From positions 1-13,314 of the forward strand of contig CAXTTL010000135.1 of assembly GCA_964247135.1 (NCBI GenBank): a DNA stretch of 13,314 nt. The letters are read 5' to 3'. The position numbers and the translations under genes are program-made. The notes under the pieces are model-generated. The model was not told the origin of the DNA. It ran no database searches and saw nothing but the letters and a program-made list of their open reading frames with translations. This stretch comes from an uncultured Deinococcales bacterium. Lineage in GTDB: Bacteria; Deinococcota; Deinococci; Deinococcales; JAAFIG01. Positions 2 to 13,314 of this stretch are shown in pieces (the first letter of the stretch is position 1; the number at the start of each line of letters is the position of its first letter).

Positions 2-640
2 CGCCTCGGTCACCGCGTGGCGTTGGCAGTCACCGACGGCAAACTCGAGATGGATGCCATGAACAGTATTCTGAAAGCCGGACGTGTCACGGGCGTCAAA
101 TACCTGGCTGTTGCCGCCCCCAGAGACGTGCTTGGCTTCCTCGAACCCAGCGCTGCTTTTGGGCGCGTTTGCAAAGTCGAACTCGAGTCACTCTCGGACT
201 TGCGCGACCTTGCCAAACTGTTTTCATTTGGACCACTCGAGCTTGAGGGCTACTGGAATGCGGGCAATATCAACACCGAAACGTTGGATTCGCTCGAGGC
301 GAACGTGCAAAGCCAAATTCAAAGCCGTGGCTTGTTCAGTTTTGTCACGCTGGCACTGAACCATTTTGATGCGCCACGCATCATCACACCCGAAGAAATT
401 CAGGACAAACTCAGCGCCACGGGCATTACCACCGGCACAATTACAGAAGTCCTCGAGACACTCTCCAAACCACCATTCAACCTGCTCTCCCCAATGGGCG
501 TGGGCGAATACCACCTCCGCGCCAACCTCGAGCGCGGTTTGTCGGATGTGGCAGAATACGTCTCGAGCCTGAGAATCCGCCTTCGTCATCCTGTGGTGAA
601 TGCCAGTGCGGAAGCGGAAACAGTTTCAAGCGGCAAGTAA
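2..640 (+). CDS. Hypothetical protein, 3' part (5' end probably outside the window)
   Basis: The frame is open from base 2 (RLGHRVALAVTDG...) to TAA at 638-640 and is followed directly by a terminator. No family motif recognised. Confidence 0.7.
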   Translation, partial: RLGHRVALAVTDGKLEMDAMNSILKAGRVTGVKYLAVAAPRDVLGFLEPSAAFGRVCKVELESLSDLRDLAKLFSFGPLELEGYWNAGNINTETLDSLEANVQSQIQSRGLFSFVTLALNHFDAPRIITPEEIQDKLSATGITTGTITEVLETLSKPPFNLLSPMGVGEYHLRANLERGLSDVAEYVSSLRIRLRHPVVNASAEAETVSSGK

Positions 641-658
641 AATCTGGATTTTCTCGAG

Positions 659-687
659 CGGACAGCGGTTGTGCTGTCCGTTTTTTT
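659..687 (+). terminator. Rho-independent terminator
   Basis: CGGACAGC-ggttgt-GCTGTCCG stem-loop followed by T7, 18 nt after the stop codon. Confidence 0.85.
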
Positions 688-904
688 GATGCTCGAGAAA
701 GCATCGAAATGTAAAAACCTCGAGCCTCACAAGATGATTTTACGCTCGAGAATTTGAACCTGAAACCTCGAGAAATATGCCCAAAACTTTCTTGAAATTT
801 TCGCCCCTTGTGTTCATTATTTTGGTAAGAATGGATCAAAATAACCTCGAGATTTACGTCTCTGACAGCAATGTGGGTTTTGTAAGAAATCGGTAAGTCT
901 GTGC

Positions 905-913
905 TGCTAAGAT
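905..913 (+). promoter_or_regulatory. Putative extended -10 promoter for the pilin genes
   Basis: TG-c-TAAGAT about 87 nt upstream of the pilin ATG. RBS AAGGAG at 987-992. No well-spaced -35 seen. Confidence 0.4.
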
Positions 914-999
914 AACTGAGTTCCGAAGAGGAACAAGCACTAAGGAAGATCAACCCGAGCCTATAAAATACCTATTCGGGAAGATCAAGGAGAAAGAAA

Positions 1000-1398
1000 A
1001 TGAAGAACAAGACCCAAGGTTTCACGCTGATCGAGCTTCTCATCGTTATCGCCATCATTGGTATTCTCGCCGCAGTTTTGATTCCAAACTTACTGTCAGC
1101 CCGTACCACCGCGAACCAACGCGCCGTTCAAGCCCACAGCGCCAACGTCTATAAGGCTTTGACCGCTGCTCTTGCAAGCGATAGCGCAGCTACTGTTGCT
1201 ACAATTGGTACGTTGTACGGTGCAACTTGCACCGCAGAATCTTTGGTTGCTGGTTCCAAGTTGTACGGTTGGTCAAAAGCACCAGGTGCAGTGGCTAGTT
1301 GCGCCATTGGTTCAGCAGGTACAGATTTCTCAGTTGTGGTTACGGCAGACGCTGCGACCGGTGGCAAAGCATCAACCAACGGCGGACCACTCCAATAA
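1000..1398 (+). CDS. pilA: Type IV pilin (probable major pilin, Thermus PilA4/Deinococcus pilin type)
   Basis: Class III signal peptide MKNKTQG|FTLIELLIVIAIIGILAAVLIPNLL with Glu at +5, 132 aa, C-terminal Cys pair, strong RBS. Confidence 0.95.
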   Translation: MKNKTQGFTLIELLIVIAIIGILAAVLIPNLLSARTTANQRAVQAHSANVYKALTAALASDSAATVATIGTLYGATCTAESLVAGSKLYGWSKAPGAVASCAIGSAGTDFSVVVTADAATGGKASTNGGPLQ

Positions 1399-1437
1399 TC
1401 GCACAGTATACATAGGTTGATTTACAGTTCATTTTCG

Positions 1438-1475
1438 ACCCCGCCTTGTCTAAATGACCTGGCGGGGTTTCGTTT
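1438..1475 (+). terminator. Intergenic stem-loop (terminator/attenuator) between the pilin genes
   Basis: ACCCCGCC (1438-1445) pairs with GGCGGGGT (1461-1468), followed by TTCGTTT. Confidence 0.7.
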
Positions 1476-1487
1476 AAAGGAGAGTAT

Positions 1488-1889
1488 ATGAAGCGGTATA
1501 CCCAAGGGTTCACGCTCATTGAACTATTAATTGTTATTGCCATCATCGGTATTCTTGCTGCTGTTTTGATCCCAAACTTACTAAATGCTCGGGCAACAGC
1601 CAATGCAAGGGCAGCACAAGTTCATAGTTCTAATGTTTATAAAGCCCTTTCGGCTCAAATTTCCAGTGAACCCAATAAGAATGTTCAGCAAGTTGTTGCA
1701 ATGTATAGTTCCACAGATTGTAAACTTCCTCAAGTAACAACAGCATCTATTCTTTATGGGTGGCAAGCATCGCCACCAACGGTTCAAAGCTGCACGATCA
1801 CAACCCCAACAGCAGCAGATACAGATTTTACAGTTACGGTTGTAACTGATTCAACGGCATTTAGTAAAACTTTTGTTAATGGTAGATAG
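1488..1889 (+). CDS. Second type IV pilin, paralog of the upstream pilin
   Basis: MKRYTQG|FTLIELLIVIAIIGILAAVLIPNLL, 133 aa, Cys pair flanking YGW as in pilin 1. RBS AAGGAG at 1477-1482. Confidence 0.93.
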   Translation: MKRYTQGFTLIELLIVIAIIGILAAVLIPNLLNARATANARAAQVHSSNVYKALSAQISSEPNKNVQQVVAMYSSTDCKLPQVTTASILYGWQASPPTVQSCTITTPTAADTDFTVTVVTDSTAFSKTFVNGR

Positions 1890-1924
1890 TAGTAAATCAA
1901 ATAACTTGAAATATTTTTATTGAA

Positions 1925-3271
1925 CTATATGTCCGAAACACTATCGTTTCGGACACTTTTATTTTGGATACAAGCCACCGCAAGGATCACAAAAAATATT
2001 CCCTCGGCTTCAACGGTCATATACCAAAACAAGTTCCAGACCAGGTACGCGAAAATTGACAGTGAAAAAAAATCAAATCTTAATAGGTTTCTAAACGAAA
2101 ATGAAATAAGCCACAAATACAAAGCCAAGCCAACCAATCCCCACATTAAGGCAATATCTAAAAATTGATCGTGTGCTTTCCAAGTGGAAAGACTCATAAA
2201 AGATGGTTGATTTTTATCGTTTAAAACCTGAAACATTTCAATTCCAGTTTTTTCATCTCGAATCGTCCGAACATATTTGACCCCATAGAAAGCTTTAAAA
2301 AATTGAATTAATTCGTCAGGTGTGACAAATTTTCTCCAAGCATCTTGAAATTGAGGTCCGCCATAACCAAAAACAGGTGCAGCCAAAATTCCTTTTAAAG
2401 CAATTTTATACAAAACTGCTCTCGCTTGATACTGGGTTGGTTCGGTAAAATCACGTTTAAAAGCTTGATTGATTAAAAAGACAAAACCAAACCCAAATAA
2501 AGCACCAATAAGAATTGCAGTAGCAGCGCTTAAGGCAATTTTTATTTTTTTATTTAAGGCAAAAAAGAAAGAAGTTGCTGCCAAACTTATATAAGGCGAT
2601 TTACTAAAGGCTAGTCCTATACCAAAGCTTGTAAAAATCAATAAAAAAAGCGTGTTTTGAAAATTCGTGGTCAAAAAACTAAAGAATCCGCCAGTTAACA
2701 AAATTAAAAAACCACCCAAGTGACCATTCGATCCAAAATTTAAAACGGGTAAATCCGCAGGTAAGGCACTGGGAATTAAAAAAGATTTTCTCAATACAAC
2801 TTCAATAATTGCAAGTACAATAAAAACAATTAAGAGATACCGTAAAGTAAGCATAAAAATATCTTTTATCTCTTGATCTCGATTCACTTCAAAATAAACC
2901 AGAAAGAAAACGAATGAAAGCAAAACCGTTCCAAAAGCGCTATCGGCGTTTGAATTTAAATCACCCAACAAGCCAATAATTGGGGTTTTGGAAAAAATTG
3001 AACTCACAACCGCCCAAAAGCCGAATAAAAGTGCCACAAAAGGCGCAGGGTGTATTTTCACAAAAGGTACAAGGTTTTTGATATTGCTTAAGCGCAGATC
3101 GGGATAAGCAGTCCAAGTTAGAAAGAAACCACCAAGAACCGCAAAAAAGCTGAGCAACAACCTGATTTGAGTACTTCCTGACGCGTTGGGGTGTTGAAGG
3201 GGATAAAAAAGTATGGCATAAAGCACAACATAGCCAGCCCACCAATACCGACGCACAAGCTTTAAATCCAT
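1925..3271 (-). CDS. O-antigen ligase (Wzy_C) family membrane protein, probable pilin O-oligosaccharyltransferase
   Basis: 448 aa with many hydrophobic segments. The loop PVFGYG...AHDQFLDIALMWGLVG resembles the Wzy_C H-N/D...G..G motif. The pilin substrate is inferred from adjacency. Confidence 0.75.
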   Translation of the reverse strand: MDLKLVRRYWWAGYVVLYAILFYPLQHPNASGSTQIRLLLSFFAVLGGFFLTWTAYPDLRLSNIKNLVPFVKIHPAPFVALLFGFWAVVSSIFSKTPIIGLLGDLNSNADSAFGTVLLSFVFFLVYFEVNRDQEIKDIFMLTLRYLLIVFIVLAIIEVVLRKSFLIPSALPADLPVLNFGSNGHLGGFLILLTGGFFSFLTTNFQNTLFLLIFTSFGIGLAFSKSPYISLAATSFFFALNKKIKIALSAATAILIGALFGFGFVFLINQAFKRDFTEPTQYQARAVLYKIALKGILAAPVFGYGGPQFQDAWRKFVTPDELIQFFKAFYGVKYVRTIRDEKTGIEMFQVLNDKNQPSFMSLSTWKAHDQFLDIALMWGLVGLALYLWLISFSFRNLLRFDFFSLSIFAYLVWNLFWYMTVEAEGIFFVILAVACIQNKSVRNDSVSDI

Positions 3272-3292
3272 GTGGCAATTGTATGCTTATTC

Positions 3293-5062
3293 TCAAGGCA
3301 GCGACAACACCGTAAACACCGTCACTCGAGCACCAAGACTGCCAAACGCCAAGTCCATGCCCAAATTAAACGGTAAAAAACCAAACCAGCGCCCTGGCAA
3401 GTTTAGACCAACTCCAGCATCGAACAGGTAACTCGAGTTCAAGTCCCAGCCAAAATCGCTGAAGATGCGGATTTCTGGCGCTAGGCTGGCAATGCCTGCA
3501 ACATTCGGGATTTGAAAACGGTATCCAAACTCGAGGTTGGCAATCAGCACACTTTGGCGGGTCAGGTAGGCTTCTGGGTAGGCGCGAAGCAGGCTGCTCG
3601 AGCCGAGGGCAAAGCCTTGGGTGTTGCTTGAATAACCGATGAGGGCACGAGCGCGGGTGAACCAGGGCGAGCCAAGGATTTGCCATTTAAACGCAATTTG
3701 GCTTTCGATGCGGGGATTCAGGTTTTCACCGAACCGAAGCTCGAGTGAACTTGAGAAATCGAAATCACCCAGTTGCGCTCGAGCCGTGCCTGTCAAACCA
3801 ATGGCTTGCGAATCAAGCGACAACCGAATACCAAAGTCAGTATTGCGGTACTCGAGTCCAAGTTCCCAGGGTGCGCCCGTCGGTCGGCGGGCTGGGTCAA
3901 ACGTTCCATAAACGCGAGTTTCGCTCGAGAATCGGTACTCGAGTTTGGCGTAACCGCTGCTTTCGGGGGCGTTGAGCAGTTTGACGTAACCGCCGGCAAT
4001 CCCAAAGTTTCCAAGGATTCCGCCTGTGGCTTCCAAACCCAGTCCGAGCGAACCCCAAGCGCTCGGCGCGCCGACTCGAGTGCCCCAGTCAAAGGCGCTC
4101 GGTCCAAGCTCGATTTGGGGGGCAACAGTCAATTCGGCTGGAATCGCTCGAGCCAGATTTAAACCTTGATCGAGTCTTGAACGCCAGACTTGATTGATGG
4201 GATTGTTCTTGTGCGGATCGCCTGGAGGATTGAGTTTGATGTTTTTTTGCTCGAGGATTTTGGCAACCTCGAGCCAGTGTTCGCTTGCGGTTTCACGTCC
4301 GCGTTTGATGAGTTCTCGAGCACTGCCAAAATCAAAATATTGTGCATCATAAGCTTTCACGCGCACCGTCAAATCGGGCTGGGCTTGATCGACAGGCAGT
4401 GTCACCGCCGCAACCGTCAAGCCAAGACTCGAGATGAGATTGTCTGGTTTTATATTGGGTTCGGCAAGACCGCGAATGGAAATCACGACACTCGAACCTA
4501 AGTCTCTGGCAACGTCCACGGGGATTGGGTTTTTCAAGCCACCATCGGCGTAATAATGCCCGTCAATTTCGACGGCGGGAAAGACAATCGGCAAACTGAT
4601 CGAGGCTCGCATGGCGGTGGTCAGGTCACCTTTGGTTAACGCAATGGCTGGTGCAACCTCGAGTTTGGTAACTATGACCGCCAGTTGCGGACTGGTGTTC
4701 TCGAGTTGCTGGTTGTCCACCAGGGCGCGGTAAACAGCTTCCAAGCCGCGAATGTCGAGCAATCCTTTGGTTGGTGGGAAGGTGACTCGAGCCAGGTCGG
4801 ATTGATGGTGTTGAAGTTCGGAAAAAATATCGGCAATCGTGTCAAAGCTATAACCACTTGAGTACAAGCCTGAAACCATCGCGCCGGCGCTCGTGCCGAC
4901 GATCAAATCCAGCGGCATTCCGCGTTCGACCAATTCTTGCAGTGCGCCCAAATACGCAAAACCCCTGGCGACGCCGCCCGCCATCGTTACGCCCACTTTT
5001 TGGGCGAAGGCGCTCGAGACTAAAATTTGAGAGAACAACAGAACCAGCAGAAGACGACGCAT
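3293..5062 (-). CDS. Secreted patatin-like phospholipase with probable C-terminal outer-membrane beta-barrel (PlpD-like)
   Basis: Signal peptide MRRLLLVLLFSQILVSSAFA, then GGVARG oxyanion loop, GTSAG nucleophile and DGG. The C-terminal half has alternating beta-strand patterns and FALGSSSLLRAYP. ATG 5062 preferred over 5071. Confidence 0.85.
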   Translation of the reverse strand: MRRLLLVLLFSQILVSSAFAQKVGVTMAGGVARGFAYLGALQELVERGMPLDLIVGTSAGAMVSGLYSSGYSFDTIADIFSELQHHQSDLARVTFPPTKGLLDIRGLEAVYRALVDNQQLENTSPQLAVIVTKLEVAPAIALTKGDLTTAMRASISLPIVFPAVEIDGHYYADGGLKNPIPVDVARDLGSSVVISIRGLAEPNIKPDNLISSLGLTVAAVTLPVDQAQPDLTVRVKAYDAQYFDFGSARELIKRGRETASEHWLEVAKILEQKNIKLNPPGDPHKNNPINQVWRSRLDQGLNLARAIPAELTVAPQIELGPSAFDWGTRVGAPSAWGSLGLGLEATGGILGNFGIAGGYVKLLNAPESSGYAKLEYRFSSETRVYGTFDPARRPTGAPWELGLEYRNTDFGIRLSLDSQAIGLTGTARAQLGDFDFSSSLELRFGENLNPRIESQIAFKWQILGSPWFTRARALIGYSSNTQGFALGSSSLLRAYPEAYLTRQSVLIANLEFGYRFQIPNVAGIASLAPEIRIFSDFGWDLNSSYLFDAGVGLNLPGRWFGFLPFNLGMDLAFGSLGARVTVFTVLSLP

Positions 5063-5097
5063 CTCGAGCATCGTAAAACAGATTTGCTAATTTACAG

Positions 5098-6276
5098 TCA
5101 AGCAAGCCGCAATTTCGCGCCTGACGCAAGTAGCAAAGCTCGAGCGCGTCCGACCAAGTACAGCGATCCGGCGATCACGATTTTGGGAGCGGTGATGGTG
5201 ACTAGCGCCATCTCGAGGGATTCAAAAGCCGTTCCATCAAACTCGAGCGCCAGCACAAACGGATCGGCACCCAATTCGCCAGGAGAGACAAAACTGACAC
5301 TCGAGGTTTTTAAGCGCAGGGCTTCGAGCATGGCGGAGACGTTCTTTCGTGCCATCACACCAAAAATCAGGGCAAAACCAGGCTCAAGATTTTCAGCCAA
5401 GGCTCGAGCGCCAGCAGGGTTGTGAGCGCCGTCGAGAATGTACTGGCGGTTTTCAAAGTCAAAAATTTCAAAGCGTCCAGCCCAGGTGGTTTGCATGGCG
5501 GCATCGATGCTGAATTCGGGTTGCTCGAGGATTCTTAAACTGGCGGCAACCAAAGCGGCATTCTCGAGTTGATGGCTTCCGCGCAAGGCGGGCGCTTGAG
5601 GCAGGGTGAACAAGGGATTCTCGAGGTCAAGCACATGCAACGGTGCGTGACGCTGACTGGTAATCTCACGGATGATCTCGAGTGGCACACCTCGAGCGGC
5701 GGTCACCACCGGAATGTCATTTCTGATTGCCCCAGCTTTCTCGAGCGTGATGCGCTCCAATGTGCCGCCCAAAGCTTCGACATGGTCAAAGTCAACATTG
5801 GTGATGATGGTCAGTTTGATACGCTCGAGGTTGTTGGTGGCATCGTGCAAGCCGCCCACGCCAGCCTCGACCACTGCAAGATCAACGTGTTGCTTGGCAA
5901 AATACTTGAACGCCATGGCGGTCACGAAATCAAAAAATGCCGCCTCGAGTTGCAAACTTTGCGCCCAACGCACGAACGATTCAATTTCTGAGGCTGAAAT
6001 CTGCTGTCCATTCACCAAAATCCGTTCCGAAAACTCGAGCAAATGCGGCGAGGTAAAACGCCCAACTTTAATACCGGTCGAACGCAAACCCGCCTCGAGC
6101 ATGGCACAGACGCTGCCCTTGCCGTTCGTGCCGATCACATGAATGGCAGGAAATTTGGTTTGAGGCTTCTCGAGTTTTTCCAGCAATTCTCGGGTTCGTT
6201 CAGTGCCTCGCGCCGCGCCAGAACGCGTGCGGGCGAACAACCAATGAATCGCGTTTTCATCAACAGGCTTATCCAC
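5098..6276 (-). CDS. folC: Folylpolyglutamate synthase/dihydrofolate synthase
   Basis: HVIGTNGKGS P-loop, FTSPHL, VEAGVGGLHDATN, ILDGAHNPAG and IAGSLYLVG motifs. GTG start. Confidence 0.95.
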   Translation of the reverse strand: MDKPVDENAIHWLFARTRSGAARGTERTRELLEKLEKPQTKFPAIHVIGTNGKGSVCAMLEAGLRSTGIKVGRFTSPHLLEFSERILVNGQQISASEIESFVRWAQSLQLEAAFFDFVTAMAFKYFAKQHVDLAVVEAGVGGLHDATNNLERIKLTIITNVDFDHVEALGGTLERITLEKAGAIRNDIPVVTAARGVPLEIIREITSQRHAPLHVLDLENPLFTLPQAPALRGSHQLENAALVAASLRILEQPEFSIDAAMQTTWAGRFEIFDFENRQYILDGAHNPAGARALAENLEPGFALIFGVMARKNVSAMLEALRLKTSSVSFVSPGELGADPFVLALEFDGTAFESLEMALVTITAPKIVIAGSLYLVGRARALLLASGAKLRLA

Positions 6277-6289
6277 AGTGTGTTGATAA
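6257..6289. promoter_or_regulatory. Cluster of three DnaA-box-like 9-mers
   Basis: TCATCAACA (6257-6265, 2 mismatches), TTATCCACA (6269-6277, perfect) and TGTTGATAA (6281-6289, inverted, 1 mismatch), each 3 nt apart. Confidence 0.55.
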
Positions 6290-6291
6290 CC

Positions 6292-7110
6292 CTACCGAGT
6301 TTGGGCTTCGGCTGGCAAGCTTTTCAGCCATTTCAAATGCGATGCCCAAACTTTAGACCACAAGGCACTGGTGTCAACCTGCAAATCAAACACTTCACGC
6401 AACACCGTGTCGTACTCGTCTTGAGACTCGAGCGTGCGGCTGGTTTCGATGCCGTTTGAAATGGTTTGCAACACCGCCCCGCGCAAACTTTGCACGCCCG
6501 TTTCGGTCATGCGGTGACACACCACAACCCGCACAAAACCGCTCTCGGGCGAGGTTTGTAGATAGGTGCAACGCTCCTGGAAAGATAAAAGTTCTTGAGG
6601 TGTGAGTGTAAAATCAAAGCTGTTCCCGACCGCGCCAAGTGCCACACTCGGAATATCAAATCGCCAATGTTCGCCGTGTTGCTTGAGTTTGAAGGCTCGA
6701 GATTGCTGCGTGTAAACACCCGGCACAAGTGGGATGGGTTCGAGCAAACCATTGCCAAAACCCGCATCCGCCAAATAGGCTTGCTCGAGGTTGACTTTTA
6801 ATGCCAAATGGTTGGCGCTGGTGTTGGTTTGACCCACCGCACACGCCAAATACTGTACTTCAAAACCGATTTCACGCAGCGCCCAAGCCAGCAAACCGTT
6901 CATCTCGTAACACCAACCGCCGCGTTTCTCGAGCACGATTTTTTCAAACGCTCGAGTTGGATTAAGTTCTAGGGTGCGTCCAAAGTGTATGTCTAAATTT
7001 TCATAAGGAATGTTCAGCAAGTGCTGGCGATGCACAGCAATGAAAGTCTCAAGACTTGACTCGAGGCTGCCTGAGTACTTGATGCGCTCAAGATAGCGCT
7101 CGAGGTTCAT
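6292..7110 (-). CDS. Arylamine N-acetyltransferase family protein
   Basis: IPYENLD motif plus the Cys-His-Asp triad motifs RGGWCYEMNGL, NHLAL and LADAGFG. 272 aa. Confidence 0.93.
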   Translation of the reverse strand: MNLERYLERIKYSGSLESSLETFIAVHRQHLLNIPYENLDIHFGRTLELNPTRAFEKIVLEKRGGWCYEMNGLLAWALREIGFEVQYLACAVGQTNTSANHLALKVNLEQAYLADAGFGNGLLEPIPLVPGVYTQQSRAFKLKQHGEHWRFDIPSVALGAVGNSFDFTLTPQELLSFQERCTYLQTSPESGFVRVVVCHRMTETGVQSLRGAVLQTISNGIETSRTLESQDEYDTVLREVFDLQVDTSALWSKVWASHLKWLKSLPAEAQTR

Positions 7111-7137
7111 GAACTGATTTTAAAGCCTGAAATGTGA

Positions 7138-7167
7138 ATGCTCGAGTCTGTTGTCTAACTCGAGCAT
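7138..7167. repeat. Perfect 10-bp inverted repeat built from two CTCGAG copies, possible terminator of the AKR gene
   Basis: ATGCTCGAGT-N10-ACTCGAGCAT, 14 nt beyond the AKR stop codon. Confidence 0.6.
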
Positions 7168-7181
7168 CAAACGGTTTGTTG

Positions 7182-8192
7182 TTACTCGCTCGAGCCGTGC
7201 AAGCGGGTTTCTTTGTTGTCCAGAACCTTGTCAATCGCAGTCATAACCTCATCGGTCATTTGCGGCATCAGCTCGAGTGCGGCGAAGTTCTCGTGGACTT
7301 GCGCGGCTTTGGACGCGCCCGTGATGACCGTGCTGACGTTAGGGTTCTTGGCGCACCATGCCAGCGCGAGTTTGGGCAGGGTTGTGCCCAAATCGGCAGC
7401 GATCTTTGCCAATTCTTGAATTTTGGGCAGTTGCGCTTTTATTTCCGGACTCTCAAAACGGGCTTTCAACCACTCGTAACCCGGTAAATTGATGCGGGTG
7501 TCGTTCGGCATGACATCGTTGTACTTGCCAGTCAACAAACCGCTCGAGAGTGGTGACCAGATGGTCGTGCCCAAACCGAGCGTGTCTGGGTTGTACAGCC
7601 GTTTGTACTCAACTTCGACGCGGTAACGGGTGAACATGTTGTACTGCGGTTGTTCCATCGTTGGCGGAATCAAATTGTACTGACGGGCGACCGCGTAAGC
7701 TTCCATCAATTCTTGCGCCGACCATTCGCTCGTGCCCCAGTAGAGCACATCGCCGCGATGGATGAGTTCGGTCATGGCACGTACCGTCTCTTCAATCGGT
7801 GTGTTGCGATCTGGGCGGTGACAAAAGTACAAATCGAGGTAATCGCATTGCAAGCGCTTGATGGCTTGATGGCACGCCTCGAAAACGTGTTTGCGCGAAA
7901 GCCCCCGCTGAATTGGCGATGGGTTCTCGATTGCGCCACCAAAAACCTTACTCGAGACAATATAACTGTCGCGTCGCCATCCTGCTTTGGTGAGCGCTTC
8001 GCCCATGATGGTTTCGGCTTGACCTCGAGCGTAAACTTCGGCGTTGTCAAAAAAATTGCAGCCGTTGTCGTATGCCGCCGACATCAATTCCAGCGCCCCG
8101 TCCACATCCAATTGCGTGCCGAACGTGACCCATGCCCCGAAAGACAAGACGCTGACTTGCAAACCTGATTTGCCCAAACGACGAAATTCCAT
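7182..8192 (-). CDS. Aldo/keto reductase, Kv-beta-subunit-like subfamily
   Basis: [42 protein letters not shown] and WSPL..GLLTGKY motifs. An AGAAGGGG RBS supports ATG 8192. Confidence 0.93.
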
Positions 8193-8278
8193 AAAAATCA
8201 CCCCTTCTTGGTGTTACAAGCGAAAAGTATCGCCTGTGGAAGGGGTGAAGCACAATAGCGTATTTTACGTTTACAGCT

Positions 8279-10489
8279 TTAAAACTCGCCGACCAACTCT
8301 GGACGCGCAAAAACGATCTTGCCAGCCTCGAGTCCAATGTAAAGTTCGCCCTCTGGGAAAGAGATCAGTGACATTGAAAGCGGGTCTTCGATTTCGTCGC
8401 GCATAATCGCACGCAACTGACGGCTCGAGCCTTTGAGTTTGACTTTGGAAACAATGTACGGCGCGAGTTTCGGGTCAAATTCGACGTGCAAATCTCGAGA
8501 TTCGAGTTCGACCCGCATGTCCTCGAGCATGTCGCGGGTGATGCTGATGAGTTCGGCTTCGCCCAGGGGTTTGAAGCGAATCACCTCGTCGAGGCGATCC
8601 AAGAATTCTGGGCTGAAGAGGTTTTTAATGGGTTGCGTGTCGGTGATTTCGCCGTCGCCCGCGAATCGCACGCCGCTCGATTGGTTGAAGCCCGTGTTGC
8701 TGGTCATGATCAAAACGGCGCGGCGGAAGTCCACGGTCCGTCCAAGTCCGTCGGTCAGGCGTCCATCGTCGAGCACCTGTAAAAACGTGTTGTAAACGTC
8801 TGGGTGCGCTTTTTCGATTTCGTCGAGCAGAATCACGCTGAACGGTTGACGGCGAATCGCTTCGGTCAAACGCCCGCCCTGGTCGTGACCGACATACCCT
8901 GGAGGTGCGCCGATCAGTTTGGAAACGCTGTGCGCCTCCTGGTATTCGCTCATGTCAAAACGCACCAAAGAGCGTTCAGAACCGAACAAAGTCTTGGCAA
9001 GTGCTTTTGCAAGATGGGTTTTGCCCACACCTGATGATCCAACAAACAAGAACGATGCCGACACTCGGGTTCGTCCACCAAGTCCGACCCTCGAGCGACG
9101 CAGTGCCGCCGACAAAGCCCTGACAGCTTCGGGTTGACCGAAAACTTGCTTGCCCAAGTTGTCCTCGAGCGCCAGAAGTTTGCCGTCGTCGCGGTCATCG
9201 ACGTAAATGCCGCCCCAAGAGTCCACAATCGCTTCAATGTCTTCGCGGGTGACAATCGGTGTGCCGTTGCCGTCCTCGACCACTGGCACGCCGAGGCTGG
9301 CGTTCAGCCGCACCCTCGAGCCAGCTTCGTCAATCAGATCAATGGCTTTGTCAGGAAAATTCCGTCCTGGCAAGCTGCGTTCGCCGACCTTGACCGAAAG
9401 TTCCAAGATTGGGTCGGGAATGATGACATTGTGATGCTCTTCGTAACGTGGTTTTAAACCGCGCAAAATCTCGAGGGTTTCGGCTGGGGTTGGCTCGAGC
9501 ACGATCACGGGTTGAAAACGCCGCTCGAGTGCCGCATCTTTTTCGATGTAACGATGGTATTCACCGGTGGTGGTCGCGCCAATAACCTGCACTTCGCCTC
9601 TCGAGAGCGGTGGTTTGAGGATGTTCGCGGCATCGAGCGTGCCTTCCGCGCCACCCGCACCGACCAGCGTGTGCAACTCGTCCACGAAGGCGACCACTCG
9701 GGCTTGCCGCAGCTCTTCAATGATTTGCCGAAGGCGTTCTTCAAATTCGCCGCGATACTTTGTGCCAGCCACCACACCCGCCAGGTCGATGGAAATCAAA
9801 CGCACGCCGCGTAAATTTGGTGGCACACGGTTTTCGATGATCGCCAGCGCCAGACCTTCGGCAATCGCGGTTTTGCCCACGCCAGGGTCGCCAATCAAAA
9901 CAGGATTGTTCTTGGTACGACGACTGAGAATCTGCACCACACGCCGAATTTCCTCGGCGCGACCAATCACGGGGTCAAGTTTTCCCTCTCGAGCCTCTTT
10001 GGTGAGATCACGCCCGTATTCGTCCAGGAAAGGTGTGTTGGCTGGTTTTTGTTCTTGGCGCGGGTCGGCATGCGCCAGAATGCGCCAACGAATCGTGTCC
10101 ACGTCTCGAGACAAATCTTGCAAAATTCTGAACGCCACCCCGTCACCCTCGCGCAAAATGCCCAAGAGAATGTGTTCAGTGCCAATGACTTGCGAACCCA
10201 AATTTCGGGCTTCGGAACTGGCAAGTTCCATCACACGTCGCGCCCTGGGGGTAATCGCGGGGGCTTCGGTGTGACGCAAACCCTCGCCGCGACCGATGAT
10301 CTCCTCGACCCGACGCCTGAAACCCTCGAGCGTCGCCCCGAACTCGGTCAGGATGCGACACGCCGTGCCACCCTCACGCATCAAGCCGAGCAACAAGTGC
10401 TCTGGTCCAATCATGGCATGTCCGAGTTTGCTGCCCTCTTCCCTGGCATAATGAAACACCAACCGCGCCCGGTCGTCGTAACGGTTCAT
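8279..10489 (-). CDS. clpC: ATP-dependent Clp protease ATP-binding subunit, ClpC/ClpA type
   Basis: Two Clp-N repeats (EHLLLGL, EHILLGI). AAA1 GDPGVGKT and VDELH; AAA2 GSSGVGKT and LLDEIEKAHPDV. RBS AAGGAG. Confidence 0.93.
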   Translation of the reverse strand: MNRYDDRARLVFHYAREEGSKLGHAMIGPEHLLLGLMREGGTACRILTEFGATLEGFRRRVEEIIGRGEGLRHTEAPAITPRARRVMELASSEARNLGSQVIGTEHILLGILREGDGVAFRILQDLSRDVDTIRWRILAHADPRQEQKPANTPFLDEYGRDLTKEAREGKLDPVIGRAEEIRRVVQILSRRTKNNPVLIGDPGVGKTAIAEGLALAIIENRVPPNLRGVRLISIDLAGVVAGTKYRGEFEERLRQIIEELRQARVVAFVDELHTLVGAGGAEGTLDAANILKPPLSRGEVQVIGATTTGEYHRYIEKDAALERRFQPVIVLEPTPAETLEILRGLKPRYEEHHNVIIPDPILELSVKVGERSLPGRNFPDKAIDLIDEAGSRVRLNASLGVPVVEDGNGTPIVTREDIEAIVDSWGGIYVDDRDDGKLLALEDNLGKQVFGQPEAVRALSAALRRSRVGLGGRTRVSASFLFVGSSGVGKTHLAKALAKTLFGSERSLVRFDMSEYQEAHSVSKLIGAPPGYVGHDQGGRLTEAIRRQPFSVILLDEIEKAHPDVYNTFLQVLDDGRLTDGLGRTVDFRRAVLIMTSNTGFNQSSGVRFAGDGEITDTQPIKNLFSPEFLDRLDEVIRFKPLGEAELISITRDMLEDMRVELESRDLHVEFDPKLAPYIVSKVKLKGSSRQLRAIMRDEIEDPLSMSLISFPEGELYIGLEAGKIVFARPELVGEF

Positions 10490-10796
10490 GTGATGCTCCT
10501 TGCTCCGATGAAGTGCTTCATAAAGATGGTCTTAGTTTACCCCGTTCAGCCCCAATTCGTGTGCGTTTTGTCTTACGTTGCTCGAGTCAACCAAAATCCC
10601 TCGAGCCTTGTGTGCTTTAGTTTACGTGCTTGACGGGCAAATGGATTCAAAACCGATGAAAACCAGGGCTGCAAGCATTTAATTTCAGCTCACCAAAACC
10701 GTTGAAAACCCTAAACAGGACCAAAAACGCTGTCGCCAGAGATTCCCAGGGAGTAGACTGTAACCAGTCAGGATTTCTGACCGATGAAGGAGTCAT

Positions 10797-11150
10797 GTGA
10801 GTACAGCAACAATGATTGGTTACAAAGAGCAGATGGGTATTATTTTCGACGCACTGGAAGACAAAAAAGCCACCGATATCGTGATGCTGGATTTGACAGC
10901 GGTCAGCGATTCCTTAGATTACTTTGTGATTTGCAGCGCCACCAGCCAACCTCAAATGAGCGCCTTAGAGCGTCACGTGCTCGAGAAATTGCTGGAAGCC
11001 GATGTTCGCGCCGTGAATGTGGAAGGTCCAAGCCCGCGTTGGGTTTTAATTAACCTGGGCGCGATTTTGGTGCACATCATGACCCCAGAAACCCGCGATT
11101 TTTACGATCTCGAGGGTTTGTGGGCGGATGCCAAACACATGCAGCGTTAA
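10797..11150 (+). CDS. rsfS: Ribosomal silencing factor RsfS (Iojap)
   Basis: ALEDKKATDI, DYFVICSATS, WVLINLG.ILVHIM..ETRDFYDLEGLW motifs. RBS AAGGAG at 10787-10792. Confidence 0.95.
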   Translation: MSTATMIGYKEQMGIIFDALEDKKATDIVMLDLTAVSDSLDYFVICSATSQPQMSALERHVLEKLLEADVRAVNVEGPSPRWVLINLGAILVHIMTPETRDFYDLEGLWADAKHMQR

Positions 11151-11168
11151 GGTTTTTAAGTTGCGGTG

Positions 11169-11201
11169 AAACCTCGAGCAGACAACTCGAGGTTTTATTT
11201 T
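11169..11201 (+). terminator. Rho-independent terminator whose stem is two CTCGAG copies
   Basis: AAACCTCGAG-cagacaa-CTCGAGGTTT followed by TATTTT, just after rsfS. Confidence 0.75.
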
Positions 11202-11265
11202 GTTGCTTTACTTTGTCAAGGTTGTGTGAATATAAAACTGAACTTTCTATAATTTTGGTTTTTGC

Positions 11266-11295
11266 TTGACAAAAATAGAATTCATGCCCTAAACT
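11266..11295 (+). promoter_or_regulatory. Sigma70-type promoter, leaderless configuration
   Basis: TTGACA (11266-11271), N18, TAAACT (11290-11295), then 6 nt to ATG 11302. Confidence 0.65.
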
Positions 11296-11301
11296 CGAGC
11301 C

Positions 11302-11490
11302 ATGAAAAACAGAGACATCGCAGGTTTGGCAGTGATTGGCTTGTTCTTCGGCGGCTTGTTGGGCATCAGCTTCTGGGCATTGCTGGGCATGACGACTATT
11401 GGTCTAACCGCCCTGGTTTTTGAATTTGTCATGCGAATGGAAGCCGCAGGAAATCCCAAAACCGCCCGCATGATGCGCGACTCCTTCTAA
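11302..11490 (+). CDS. Small hypothetical membrane protein (62 aa)
   Basis: Long hydrophobic Gly-rich stretch (probably two TM helices), with its own promoter and terminator. Confidence 0.7.
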   Translation: MKNRDIAGLAVIGLFFGGLLGISFWALLGMTTIGLTALVFEFVMRMEAAGNPKTARMMRDSF

Positions 11491-11505
11491 AAACCCTTTC
11501 AACCG

Positions 11506-11540
11506 TCCCTCGTTCGTGTCTCGAGCGAGGGATTTTTCTT
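11506..11540 (+). terminator. Rho-independent terminator
   Basis: TCCCTCGTTCG-tgtct-CGAGCGAGGGA (one G:U pair) followed by TTTTTCTT. Confidence 0.8.
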
Positions 11541-11552
11541 GTAGCATGTTTT

Positions 11553-11882
11553 GTGCCACACTGGTCAGAAACCCTTGCCGCCAACCACCTCGAGCAACAC
11601 GGACTGAAAATCCTCGAGCTAAATTACCGCATTCGTGGCGGTGAAATCGACATTATCGCCCTGGCGCCAGACGGTACAACCGTCTTTGTGGAGGTCAAGC
11701 AGCGCAAGAGTAATTCGCACGGCACACCAGGCGAAAGCATCACCGCCCGAAAAGCCATGCTGGTACGTCGCGCCGCGCTGCAATACCTTGGACGCGACGA
11801 TATTGCCTGCCGGTTTGATGCCGTGCTGATCGAAGGAGATCAGAAAGCATTGAAACTCGAGTGGGTCAAGGATGCGTTTTAA
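11553..11882 (+). CDS. yraN: YraN (UPF0102) family putative endonuclease
   Basis: NYRIRGGEIDII, VFVEVKQR and CRFDAV motifs. Confidence 0.92.
   Translation: MPHWSETLAANHLEQHGLKILELNYRIRGGEIDIIALAPDGTTVFVEVKQRKSNSHGTPGESITARKAMLVRRAALQYLGRDDIACRFDAVLIEGDQKALKLEWVKDAF
11850..11882 (+). repeat. Direct repeat copy 1 (last 11 codons of yraN)
   Basis: TTGAAACTCGAGTGGGTCAAGGATGCGTTTTAA, 28/33 identical to 12419-12451. Confidence 0.85.
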
Positions 11883-11912
11883 ATCAATTCAAAATTGCGC
11901 TACACTAAATCT

Positions 11913-12416
11913 ATGGCAGCCCAAAACCATTTTGAAAAACTGATGATTGCCGCCGACGCCATTGGTGTGAGGCTCGAGATTATTTCTGGTTTGCCCGTTT
12001 GGGAAACCTCACCCGTTTACCGTCATCAAGTTGAAGTTGATCGTATTCGCAACACCATCCAAGCGATTGAAGGCAGCACATGTGCTTGTCACCATATTGC
12101 AGACACGGTTTTTGCCTTTCCAGACGGTTCTTTAAAACGCCCAGACATTGCCATCCTGTGCCGAATTCCAAACGAAGAAGAAATGGATTCTGCGCTAACT
12201 CAAATTCCAGCCGCCGTGGTGGAAATTATATCCTTGGGTTACGAAGAAAAAGACTTAAAACTCGCACCCAATTTTTACCTCGCTCAAGGCGTCAAAGACG
12301 TACTGATTTTTGACCCTCGAGCAAAGCTAGTTTGGCATCATCGGGTTGATGGCGTGAAATCGTTGAGCGTTCCACAAGAATTTAAGCTCGAGTGCGGTTG
12401 TACATTACAGATTTAA
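11913..12416 (+). CDS. Uma2 family (PD-(D/E)XK-like) putative endonuclease
   Basis: LEIISG...SP..RHQ, KRPDIAI, AVVEIIS, and Y..QGVKDVLIFDP motifs. ATG 11913 lies 6 nt after TACACT (11901-11906). Confidence 0.88.
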   Translation: MAAQNHFEKLMIAADAIGVRLEIISGLPVWETSPVYRHQVEVDRIRNTIQAIEGSTCACHHIADTVFAFPDGSLKRPDIAILCRIPNEEEMDSALTQIPAAVVEIISLGYEEKDLKLAPNFYLAQGVKDVLIFDPRAKLVWHHRVDGVKSLSVPQEFKLECGCTLQI

Positions 12417-12418
12417 AC

Positions 12419-12451
12419 TTGAAGCTCGAGTGGATGAAAGATGCGTTTTGA
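12419..12451 (+). repeat. Direct repeat copy 2: orphan remnant of a yraN 3' end
   Basis: TTGAAGCTCGAGTGGATGAAAGATGCGTTTTGA reads LKLEWMKDAF*, against yraN LKLEWVKDAF*. Confidence 0.85.
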
Positions 12452-12465
12452 AACTCGAGAACCGG

Positions 12466-13314
12466 TTACGGGTTTTGCTGGTGTTTTTTGAAGATCAACT
12501 CGAGTTTGTGATAAAGAGGTTCTAATTCTGATCGGTCTTTTGAATTACAGATTTCAAGGATCGTGAATTTATCTTGATAATTATAATCGTAGTCAATTAC
12601 AATTTCCTTATTTATGATGCGAAGCGTATAGATTAAAATAGGATTTCTCTGATCGTCTATTTGAATATAAATAAAAGAAACCATAAACGCAAAAAATGCA
12701 ATAAAAGCAGAAATCCACAAAGAATTCCCCGAAAATCCTATAAATATACCAGCGATGACCAAGGAAAATAAAAAGGCTACAATAGAAAAATACCAATGGC
12801 TTTCATAGGTTTCGACAATCTCGGCTGTATCAAATTCTCTAAGCTCTTGAGTCGTGTTCAATTCATTACTTGTCACTTTTTTGCTTGTTAACAGAATCGA
12901 ACTCGAGCGATACAAAACATGTTCAAGAAGATTATCAACAGGTTTTTCAGCCTCGAGTTTTGGTTGTGGTTGAACCGAAACCATCAACTCATCAGGCTCG
13001 AGTATTTCCCGCAAGGCACTTACCGTTTGCGGACGCTCATTGATATGCGACTTCAAACCTTGTTCAATCCCAAAACGCAAATTCTCGGCAACGTCGCTCG
13101 AGATTGGGGTCAGTTTTGCGCCAGCGAACAAATCCCCAGCGCTGGGTGGTTGCGTTCCTGTTAAGGCGTGATACAACGTTGCGGCAAGACCATAAACATC
13201 GGTGTACTCACCAAATTTTGCTTCGCTGGCATACTGCTCTGGCGCGGCATACCCAGGACTGACCAGTTGCGTGTGCTGGGTTCGCTCGCCAGCATGAAAA
13301 CTTCTTGCCGATCC
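12466..13314 (-). CDS. Hanks-type Ser/Thr protein kinase with C-terminal two-TM domain (5' end outside the window)
   Basis: The frame is open from the window end: GSARSF...VSPGYAAPEQY...TDVYGLAATLYHALTG...ERPQT (kinase subdomains VII-XI), followed by a linker and two hydrophobic helices. Confidence 0.9.
   Translation of the reverse strand, partial: GSARSFHAGERTQHTQLVSPGYAAPEQYASEAKFGEYTDVYGLAATLYHALTGTQPPSAGDLFAGAKLTPISSDVAENLRFGIEQGLKSHINERPQTVSALREILEPDELMVSVQPQPKLEAEKPVDNLLEHVLYRSSSILLTSKKVTSNELNTTQELREFDTAEIVETYESHWYFSIVAFLFSLVIAGIFIGFSGNSLWISAFIAFFAFMVSFIYIQIDDQRNPILIYTLRIINKEIVIDYDYNYQDKFTILEICNSKDRSELEPLYHKLELIFKKHQQNP

Follow-up and report, generated by a model that had tools for sequence, protein, structure and literature searches.

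The CTCGAG hexamer in the window

The stretch of DNA analysed here, referred to as the window, was the whole of a 13,314-nt contig (CAXTTL010000135.1, coded C135) from the genome assembly of an uncultured Deinococcales bacterium (GCA_964247135.1, coded G000 throughout), and the element in question was the palindromic hexamer CTCGAG, which recurred along nearly all of it. The window contained exactly 98 copies (7.4/kb), the first at 44-49 and the last at 13097-13102, and 16 of the 98 lay outside the listed open reading frames (ORFs). Dinucleotide-preserving shuffles of the window yielded a mean of 2.46 copies and a maximum of 8, with none of the 200 shuffles reaching 98. A previous reading of the letters of this contig, made without database searches (hereafter the sequence-only reading), had estimated about 98 copies between positions 44 and 13102 where about 3 were expected, and the recount agreed. 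Its per-gene counts stood for folC (16) and clpC (14), but the patatin-like gene held 20 sites and not 19. The three sites that it had given as examples of different codon phases were correctly placed, 4700 being in phase 0 (QQLENT), 4786 in phase 1 (LARVT) and 5013 in phase 2 (LVSSA). The features of the window relevant to the motif were as follows.

44..13102, strandless, since the palindrome is the same on both strands: dispersed array of 98 CTCGAG sites (from the count and the shuffles)
653..851: dense cluster of 6 sites (653, 692, 719, 745, 767, 846) in about 200 bp, no gene called (from the site map)
852..3324: motif desert (gap 846-3324, 2,479 bp, guanine-plus-cytosine content (GC) 0.40), the second-longest gap of the whole genome
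1000-1398, plus strand: prepilin-type gene (N-methylation motif), inside the motif desert
1488-1889, plus strand: prepilin-type gene (N-methylation motif), inside the motif desert
1925-3271, minus strand: O-antigen-ligase-like (Wzy_C) gene, inside the motif desert
3293..5071, minus strand: patatin-like phospholipase gene, 20 sites, phases 0/1/2 = 9/6/5
5098..6276, minus strand: Mur-ligase/FolC-like gene, 16 sites (13.6/kb), phases 0/1/2 = 12/3/1
8279..10489, minus strand: clpC, 14 sites; codons were compared across the order, and the tree was built, with this gene
10581..11525, no strand: 6 sites outside the listed ORFs (10581, 10600, 11173, 11186, 11294, 11520), some of which varied among congeners

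Genome-wide abundance

The G000 assembly comprised 5.09 Mb in 386 contigs, the largest of 116 kb, with an estimated completeness of 84% and a GC of 52.7%; the assembly contained no 16S gene, and its EF-Tu gene was cut by a contig end. The lineage was placed from ribosomal protein L1, whose best matches in the PDB were chains of Thermus thermophilus (357 bits) and Deinococcus radiodurans (5dm6, 336 bits), against 271 bits for B. subtilis; an Atlas search with ClpC left the taxon unsettled. CTCGAG occurred 33,925 times in it (6.66/kb, or one site per 150 bp), making up 4.0% of all bases and ranking first among the hexamers both by count and by over-representation. The sequence-only reading had allowed that the excess might be confined to the one contig, a possibility that did not hold, as all 297 contigs of at least 5 kb carried the motif, at a minimum density of 2.56/kb and a median of 6.77/kb.

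Observed-to-expected ratios under Markov models were 24.8 at order 0, 35.2 at order 1, 14.4 at order 2, 3.45 at order 3 and 1.24 at order 4. The drop to 1.24 at order 4 was circular, because G followed 87.6% of all CTCGA. When the motif was masked from the background, models of orders 0-4 predicted 564-1,290 copies, and the Markov-controlled comparison proposed by the sequence-only reading therefore left an enrichment of 26- to 60-fold in place.

The excess belonged to the exact hexamer. The other fifteen words of the form NTCGAN occurred 121-2,188 times each, leaving CTCGAG alone raised, and the core TCGA showed no enrichment by itself, with 20,685 copies outside CTCGAG against 19,771 expected. 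Flanking positions were only mildly biased: 39% of sites had G at -1, and 37% had A at -3. The degenerate specificities CYCGRG and CTYRAG were rejected, as CCCGGG (124 copies) and CTTAAG (449 copies) were not raised with it. TaqI-type methylation of the TCGA core, to which the sequence-only reading had pointed, was likewise discarded as the driver, given the unenriched core and the presence of TaqI_C-type methyltransferases in only 6 of 18 relatives from the same family.

A signal at the level of DNA

Coding and non-coding DNA were separated by a crude gene call, in which 4,537 ORFs without mutual overlap, each 300 nt or longer, covered 88% of G000 bases. CTCGAG was denser in non-coding DNA (7.59/kb), where GC was only 46.5%, than in coding DNA (6.53/kb). 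The 29,367 coding sites were distributed over phases 0, 1 and 2 as 17,951, 4,614 and 6,802. Shuffling of synonymous codons within genes, which is a conservative control since the inflated usage of CTC and GAG is retained, returned totals of 4,002-4,186 (3,154, 332 and 601 in the three phases), so that the observed number stood 7.2-fold above the shuffles.

The spelling of the Leu-Glu dipeptide (LE) carried the same signal. CTC-GAG encoded 17,951 of the 23,422 LE dipeptides (76.6%), where codon usage taken without regard to context predicts about 4.8%; the odds ratio was about 65 (natural logarithm 4.2). Outside the LE context, CTC accounted for 14.9% of Leu codons and GAG for 32.4% of Glu codons. 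The same two codons in swapped order, GAG-CTC, had no occurrence in G000. Dipeptide frequencies were themselves displaced, with LE over-represented 2.38-fold and Ser-Ser 1.62-fold, and Glu-Leu at 1.01-fold. Transfer RNA genes held 10 sites in 5,129 bp, compared with 34 expected at the genomic density.

The denser non-coding DNA, the excess over synonymous shuffles and the spelling of LE therefore established CTCGAG enrichment as a DNA-level signal, one that altered proteins and was bounded only by functional constraint. The sequence-only reading had argued for such a signal over codon-pair bias from the occurrence of sites in all three phases and between genes, and on this point it was upheld.

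Conservation and turnover of sites

Sites were compared between G000 and its congener G005 over 205 kb of the latter, using non-overlapping high-scoring segment pairs that were 400 bp or longer and 75% or more identical, which gave 136,891 alignment columns in 47 segment pairs at 85.8% identity. CTCGAG was kept at 788 of 967 sites (81.5%), compared with 47.5% for all hexamers and 51.3% for hexamers of the same composition. Identity per base was 0.94-0.95 on exactly the six motif bases and 0.81-0.91 just outside them. Intergenic sites were kept in 96 of 122 cases, against a background of 51.0%. Where a site differed between the two genomes, the variants were mainly transitions and were found at all positions of the word.

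Gain of sites, which the sequence-only reading had suggested looking for among orthologs, was seen when six genomes were projected on the window (8,745-11,880 bases covered per genome). Thirty-one sites were present in all six genomes, 24 were absent from one genome (19 present in 5/6 and 5 in 4/5), and 16 occurred in just one of the 5-6 genomes covered. Several gains were three-step, fully synonymous rewrites of xCC-AGG-G to xCT-CGA-G on the coding strand; these recurred at different positions and in different lineages, and intermediates were seen. In clpC from 16 genomes of the family, 33 alignment columns bore the motif in at least one genome, and 4 columns bore it in at least 12. Some clpC sites came with conservative replacements relative to outgroups, namely RAR to RSR (in 10 of 16), AKV to ARV and GPS to GSS. 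A strong directional force thus acts on exactly six base pairs, in coding and non-coding DNA alike; it retains existing sites, keeps making new ones and saturates the permissive positions.

Spacing and motif-free DNA

Spacing between sites was near-geometric (mean 148 bp, coefficient of variation 0.96), with an added 3-bp periodicity. An inter-site distance of 6 was absent because it would create GAGCTC. Density was flat around gene starts. After stop codons it rose to 11.7/kb in the first 30 nt and 9.3/kb at 30-60 nt, compared with 6-7/kb elsewhere.

Gaps longer than 1.5 kb numbered only 18 genome-wide and summed to 34 kb, with a mean GC of 0.41. Similarly, a site was lacking from only 15 of the 2,066 ORFs that were 900 nt or longer, and the mean GC of these 15 was 0.40. 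Five proteins from the largest gaps were scanned against Pfam, two of them without a match. The largest motif-free gaps with defence-type proteins, at a GC of 27-35%, were the following.

G000:C4:51576-53231: reverse-transcriptase/trypsin-protease fusion
G000:C20:8451-9617: AAA_21 AbiEii/OLD-like ATPase
G000:C70:14235-16154: AAA_16 ATPase

Low-GC, foreign-looking DNA is thus without the motif. The desert at 852-3324 of the window, whose two prepilin-type genes encode proteins of 132 and 133 aa, was kept at about 82% identity in congeners and was nearly free of sites there also, the homologous stretch containing 0 sites in 2,438 bp of G005 and 1 site in 2,445 bp of G004.

Distribution across Deinococcota

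Taxa were coded, with f1 denoting the family of G000 (19 genomes in five genera) and f2 and f3 other families, f3 being the sister family. The trait was present in all 18 f1 relatives, which carried 12,028-35,442 copies of CTCGAG (4.3-6.8/kb, densities computed from rounded genome sizes), and GC at their clpC loci ranged from 45 to 64%. A survey of the phylum covered 251 genomes, the phylum as sampled amounting to one order. The word was avoided in the GC-rich, Deinococcus-like genus g7 (92 species), at 26-1,010 copies per genome. In the Thermus-like genus g9 it reached about 0.9/kb and was about equal to GAGCTC, both being mildly raised. The Meiothermus-like genera g13-g15 and several genera of f2 had 2-3.5/kb, with a CTCGAG:GAGCTC ratio of at least 6:1.

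Two outliers of f3 resembled f1, G253 with 24,536 copies in 3.5 Mb (7.0/kb) and G196 with 13,562 copies in 3.8 Mb. G197, a congener of G253 in genus g36, had only 683 copies (0.3/kb), about 25-fold below G253. These two congeners also differed in the purging of other palindromes and in LE excess. Observed-to-expected ratios for LE, calculated on samples of 20-205 kb with a crude six-frame ORF call (150 aa or longer), were 2.2-2.8 in f1 genomes, 2.67 in G253, 2.3 in G196, 2.1 in G198, 1.27 in G197, 1.01 in the Thermus-like G022 and 0.92 in the Deinococcus-like G028; LE excess tracked CTCGAG density across the genomes compared.

A maximum-likelihood tree of ClpC was built from 33 rows of tblastn-anchored ORFs, with G006, G017 and G018 left out as their clpC was truncated or not retrieved. 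In it f1 formed a monophyletic group (100/99) whose sister was f3 (99/97), and within f3 the genomes G253 and G197 were sisters (100/99). The positions of f1, G253 and G197 in this tree indicate that CTCGAG enrichment was either gained more than once or repeatedly lost within Deinococcota.

Purge of other palindromes

Nearly half of the other palindromic hexamers of G000 (28 of 63) fell below 0.1-fold of expectation. Among words expected about 1,100-1,700 times each, GAGCTC occurred 0 times, GGGCCC 1, CGGCCG 3, AGGCCT 4, CGTACG 5, GGATCC 7, CCGCGG 11 and CAGCTG 15. The tetramers GGCC and CTAG were at 0.02-fold and 0.07-fold of expectation. The window likewise contained 0 copies of GAGCTC.

GAGCTC had at most 25 copies in 16 of the 19 f1 genomes, the exceptions being G008 (568), G010 (161) and G015 (114). 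A similar purge was seen in samples of G005, G007, G009, G011 and G253, and little of it in G197, G196 and G028. CAGCTG ranged from 15 to 1,097 copies within f1, where the purging of GTCGAC varied as well, and the purged set differed between genera of the family. Such a shifting set of purged words is what changing restriction pressures would produce, and CTCGAG enrichment was constant in f1, which makes the coupling between the two only partial. Tight coupling of CTCGAG enrichment to a general purge was accordingly dropped, since it held only in part and G196 was enriched with little purge. Avoidance of GTCGAC was extreme and genus-wide in the Thermus-like g9, whose 30 genomes (1.8-2.5 Mb) held 0-30 copies of GTCGAC each.

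Proposed mechanism and alternatives

Our favoured explanation, which we advance tentatively and rate somewhat short of an even chance, is that a dimeric recogniser resembling a type II restriction-modification (R-M) enzyme drives site-local biased repair, or selection, toward CTCGAG. A modification or repair activity would protect or restore the word, and mismatches or variants at near-cognate sites would resolve toward it, as in the methylation-linked repair model for the cyanobacterial highly iterated palindrome HIP1; in an alternative form, there would be weak selection at each site for the marked state. The force was near-saturated and the sites behaved independently, which suggests action local to the site and not on whole fragments. 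The strict 6-bp palindrome, the existence of a real R-M specificity for the word in the phylum, and the switch between avoidance and enrichment make a type II R-M-like recogniser the most likely agent; the link to R-M systems is based on the XhoI-type enzyme pairs of the phylum, the avoidance of the word in g7, the contrast between G253 and G197 and a preprint record of CTCGAG methylation in some hot-spring genomes (10.64898/2026.06.24.734251).

XhoI-type endonucleases, which recognise this word, were found in 4 of the 251 genomes of the phylum (G021, G084, G139 and a decayed copy in G104), and none (PF04555) was found among the five f1 genomes in that sample. Their partner methyltransferases were of the β-class in G021, G139 and G084 and of the γ-class in G104; the Meiothermus-like G030 encoded a 48% homologue of the latter. 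At locus L245 (G021:C1:73699-77256) a seemingly intact XhoI-type endonuclease gene lay convergent with a PF01555 methyltransferase gene. CTCGAG was not avoided in G021, at 1.7/kb or about 5-fold over order 0.

The methyltransferases of G000 itself comprised two cytosine-5 (C5) enzymes, five PF01555 matches (one gene being split over contig ends) and one D12-class enzyme, and the genome also encoded HsdM-like and large Eco57I-type enzymes. The search for an enzyme to match the word, as well as the pattern of its variants, weighed against an R-M-like recogniser. No methyltransferase tracked the trait in profiles run over one set of 30 relatives, these genomes being incomplete and the D12 class not being profiled in them. 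Of the two native-looking enzymes of G000, the N4/N6 enzyme on C36 was matched by orthologues in G002 and G007 alone, G019 having a copy interrupted by a stop codon, and the C5 enzyme on C178 only in G001, G002 and G007; the C5 enzyme on C14 was likewise limited to G001, G012 and G018. TaqI_C domains were present in the 6 of 18 f1 relatives already mentioned and PF01555 in 15 of 18, G003, G011 and G015 being without it. When C5 enzymes were compared, 23 distinct proteins fell into 14 groups, of which the largest covered 4 genomes; several of the enzymes had a GC of 0.36-0.45 with few or no CTCGAG in their genes. The single-contig 5.1 Mb genome G011 had one foreign-looking C5 enzyme (GC 0.42, 0 sites), three HsdM-like enzymes and one of 1,111 aa, and G015 yielded only a weak methyltransferase match of 240 aa. 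No close homologue of the XhoI-partner methyltransferases was present in G000 (best identity 25-28%), and neither Vsr nor an XhoI endonuclease (PF04555) was found in this 84% complete assembly. A further candidate, an HsdM-like methyltransferase some 700 aa long and encoded next to a NucS_C-like nuclease, was rejected for its patchy distribution, since close orthologues were limited to G005, G011 and G016. The methyltransferase that the sequence-only reading had thought worth seeking, specific for TCGA or CTCGAG, thus did not emerge as a conserved gene of f1.

The site variants told the same way. Differences between G000 and G005 numbered 34 at positions 1/6, 32 at positions 2/5 and 22 at positions 3/4, with no hot position of the deamination type, and the abundance ratios of one-off neighbours overlapped (0.95-1.73 at position 1, 0.51-1.44 at position 2 and 0.08-1.16 at position 3), showing no bias toward the outer positions. 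Our confidence in the R-M-like recogniser is held below even because the enzyme searches were negative and because neither a deamination signature nor an outer-position signature was seen.

The HsdM-like N6 methyltransferase module occurred at loci L152 (G011:C1:2186719-2190579), L150 (G005:C54) and L215 (G016:C813). The enzyme was 82-85% identical over three genera, and the next gene gave a borderline match to NucS_C (a PD-(D/E)xK nuclease). Its absence from most relatives, despite that identity, suggests exchange of an R-M-like unit within f1.

A protein that recognises CTCGAG independently of methylation, either turning near-cognate sites into the word or making its density the mark of resident DNA, is in our view a rather unlikely but serious candidate. 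One hexamer would then have been driven to 4% of the genome, with codons and amino acids rewritten on the way, and gained or lost between sister lineages, with ordinary restriction pressure meanwhile stripping nearly every other palindrome. In a rival reading, which we consider unlikely, a nucleoid-associated, protective or defence protein would read CTCGAG density and each site would confer a small benefit, so that density might distinguish resident from foreign DNA or organise the chromosome. The even, near-random spread over every contig is consistent with such a self-mark, as are the scarcity and low GC of long ORFs without a site (15 of 2,066, mean GC 0.40) and the coincidence of deserts with defence-type genes, and selection on hexamers is evidently effective here (GAGCTC at 0, 28 of 63 palindromes below 0.1-fold). 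No candidate reader protein has been found so far, however, there was no positional preference relative to genes save a modest peak within the first 30-60 nt past stop codons, and a strict 6-bp palindrome is not known to serve as a self-mark elsewhere. An uptake or recombination signal, by which CTCGAG-rich alleles would be imported more often and drive would fill the core genome as it does for the uptake signal sequence (USS) and DNA uptake sequence (DUS), appears similarly improbable. Thermus and Deinococcus are naturally competent, the motif was dense wherever DNA was long resident and almost missing from islands of low GC and defence type, and the proteome was affected, as it is by USS; such a signal would need no methyltransferase, in line with the negative gene searches, and the lineage-variable purging of restriction sites would fit a frequent passage of DNA into cells whose restriction enzymes differ. 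Against it, at 6.7 sites/kb an extra site should barely alter the uptake of a fragment, yet the odds ratio was 65 and the sites were independent. Known uptake signals are 9-12 bp, non-palindromic and present at about 1/kb, and DNA uptake by Thermus thermophilus is non-specific.

Two simpler origins can be set aside with far more assurance. That the excess follows from base composition, from codon usage or from a preference for certain codon pairs or amino acids is highly improbable, even though phase 0 (Leu-Glu) was the commonest (17,951 of 29,367 coding sites), the Markov ratio at order 4 was just 1.24, and in the GC-rich Thermus-like genus CTCGAG and GAGCTC were mildly and about equally raised. 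This origin was refuted by the denser non-coding DNA, the 7.2-fold excess over synonymous shuffles, the absence of GAG-CTC and the 26- to 60-fold excess over a masked background, and intergenic sites were conserved as well as coding ones. An artefact of assembly, binning or library, such as a linker, might be suspected because the assembly is of metagenome type and fragmented (386 contigs, 84% complete), but has a negligible chance of being the source. In-frame sites occupied orthologous positions of conserved genes in independent genomes, which refuted it; 18 other species shared the trait, including one with a single-contig 5.1 Mb genome, and every contig of at least 5 kb carried the motif.

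Comparison with known systems

Among R-M systems, XhoI/PaeR7I has the same recognition word, CTCGAG, and XhoI-type gene pairs are present in the phylum. Unlike an XhoI-type restriction target, which is normally avoided, CTCGAG was maximised here, and neither the endonuclease nor a close homologue of its methyltransferases was found in G000 or in five sampled f1 genomes. In Escherichia coli, very-short-patch repair by Dcm/Vsr is a site-local bias that moves words toward an R-M cognate site with modest effect, whereas the effect on CTCGAG was at least 25-fold and equal on all six positions, in a genome where no Vsr was found. The USS of Haemophilus and DUS of Neisseria are over-represented words of the core genome that are scarce in foreign DNA, have effects on encoded peptides and probably accumulate by molecular drive. 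CTCGAG shared with them its over-representation, its scarcity in foreign DNA and its shaping of encoded peptides; it differed from these longer and much sparser words, which have an orientation, in being a 6-bp palindrome without conserved flanks at 6.7/kb.

The closest known analogue, as the sequence-only reading had proposed, was HIP1 of cyanobacteria. CTCGAG is an element of the highly iterated palindrome (HIP) type outside cyanobacteria, comparable in its hyper-abundance to cyanobacterial HIPs, which it resembles as a GC-rich short palindrome in genome-wide excess, found in coding and non-coding DNA, conserved above background and variable between lineages. HIP1 (GCGATCGC) and the alternate HIPs are, according to two articles (Elhai 2015, PMC4390886; Xu et al. 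2018, PMC5861425), abundant cyanobacterial palindromes of coding and non-coding DNA that are conserved and lineage-variable, and they are thought to be tied to DNA modification or repair. The former article quotes a HIP density of about 1/kb (PMC4390886, section 3.4) and describes a methyltransferase as co-occurring whenever a HIP is frequent. The host here is a member of Deinococcota and not a cyanobacterium (neither PsaA nor PsaB was found in G000), and the word is a hexamer, whereas HIP1 is an octamer, present at about 6.7/kb against the roughly 1/kb quoted there. For CTCGAG no co-occurring methyltransferase was found among the classes profiled, in contrast to the one reported in that text for every frequent HIP. 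One-off variants of CTCGAG were not outer-biased, its core TCGA was unenriched alone, and the LE dipeptide was inflated, in all of which it departed from HIPs.

CTCGAG did not appear in the main text of PMC4390886 or PMC5861425, and no description of its hyper-abundance was found in the literature searched, including in work on Deinococcota, Meiothermus and HIPs, supplementary tables being outside this search. In a preprint on hot-spring genomes, CTCGAG is among the motifs recorded as methylated in some of them (10.64898/2026.06.24.734251).

How a genome comes to be filled with a HIP1-type palindrome has been an open question for three decades, and CTCGAG provides an independent second case from another phylum, with the advantages of one site per 150 bp and a measurable footprint on the proteome. 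Within one order there is a graded series, from avoidance in the Deinococcus-like genus through parity in the Thermus-like genus and about 10-fold enrichment in cultured Meiothermus-like relatives to 25-fold in f1. With this series and the sister pair G253/G197, comparative genomics should be able to trace the responsible gene, and the mechanism could be tested in relatives that grow in culture. That a DNA-level force can shift dipeptide composition genome-wide bears on codon models, gene prediction and binning. In practical terms, XhoI would cut such DNA to fragments of about 150 bp unless it were modified.

Other features of the window

A scan of the window against Rfam returned no match. 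Positions 1-344 of the window had a second copy, 94% identical, at G000:C263:5992-6335, which a paralogue or a strain variant could explain.

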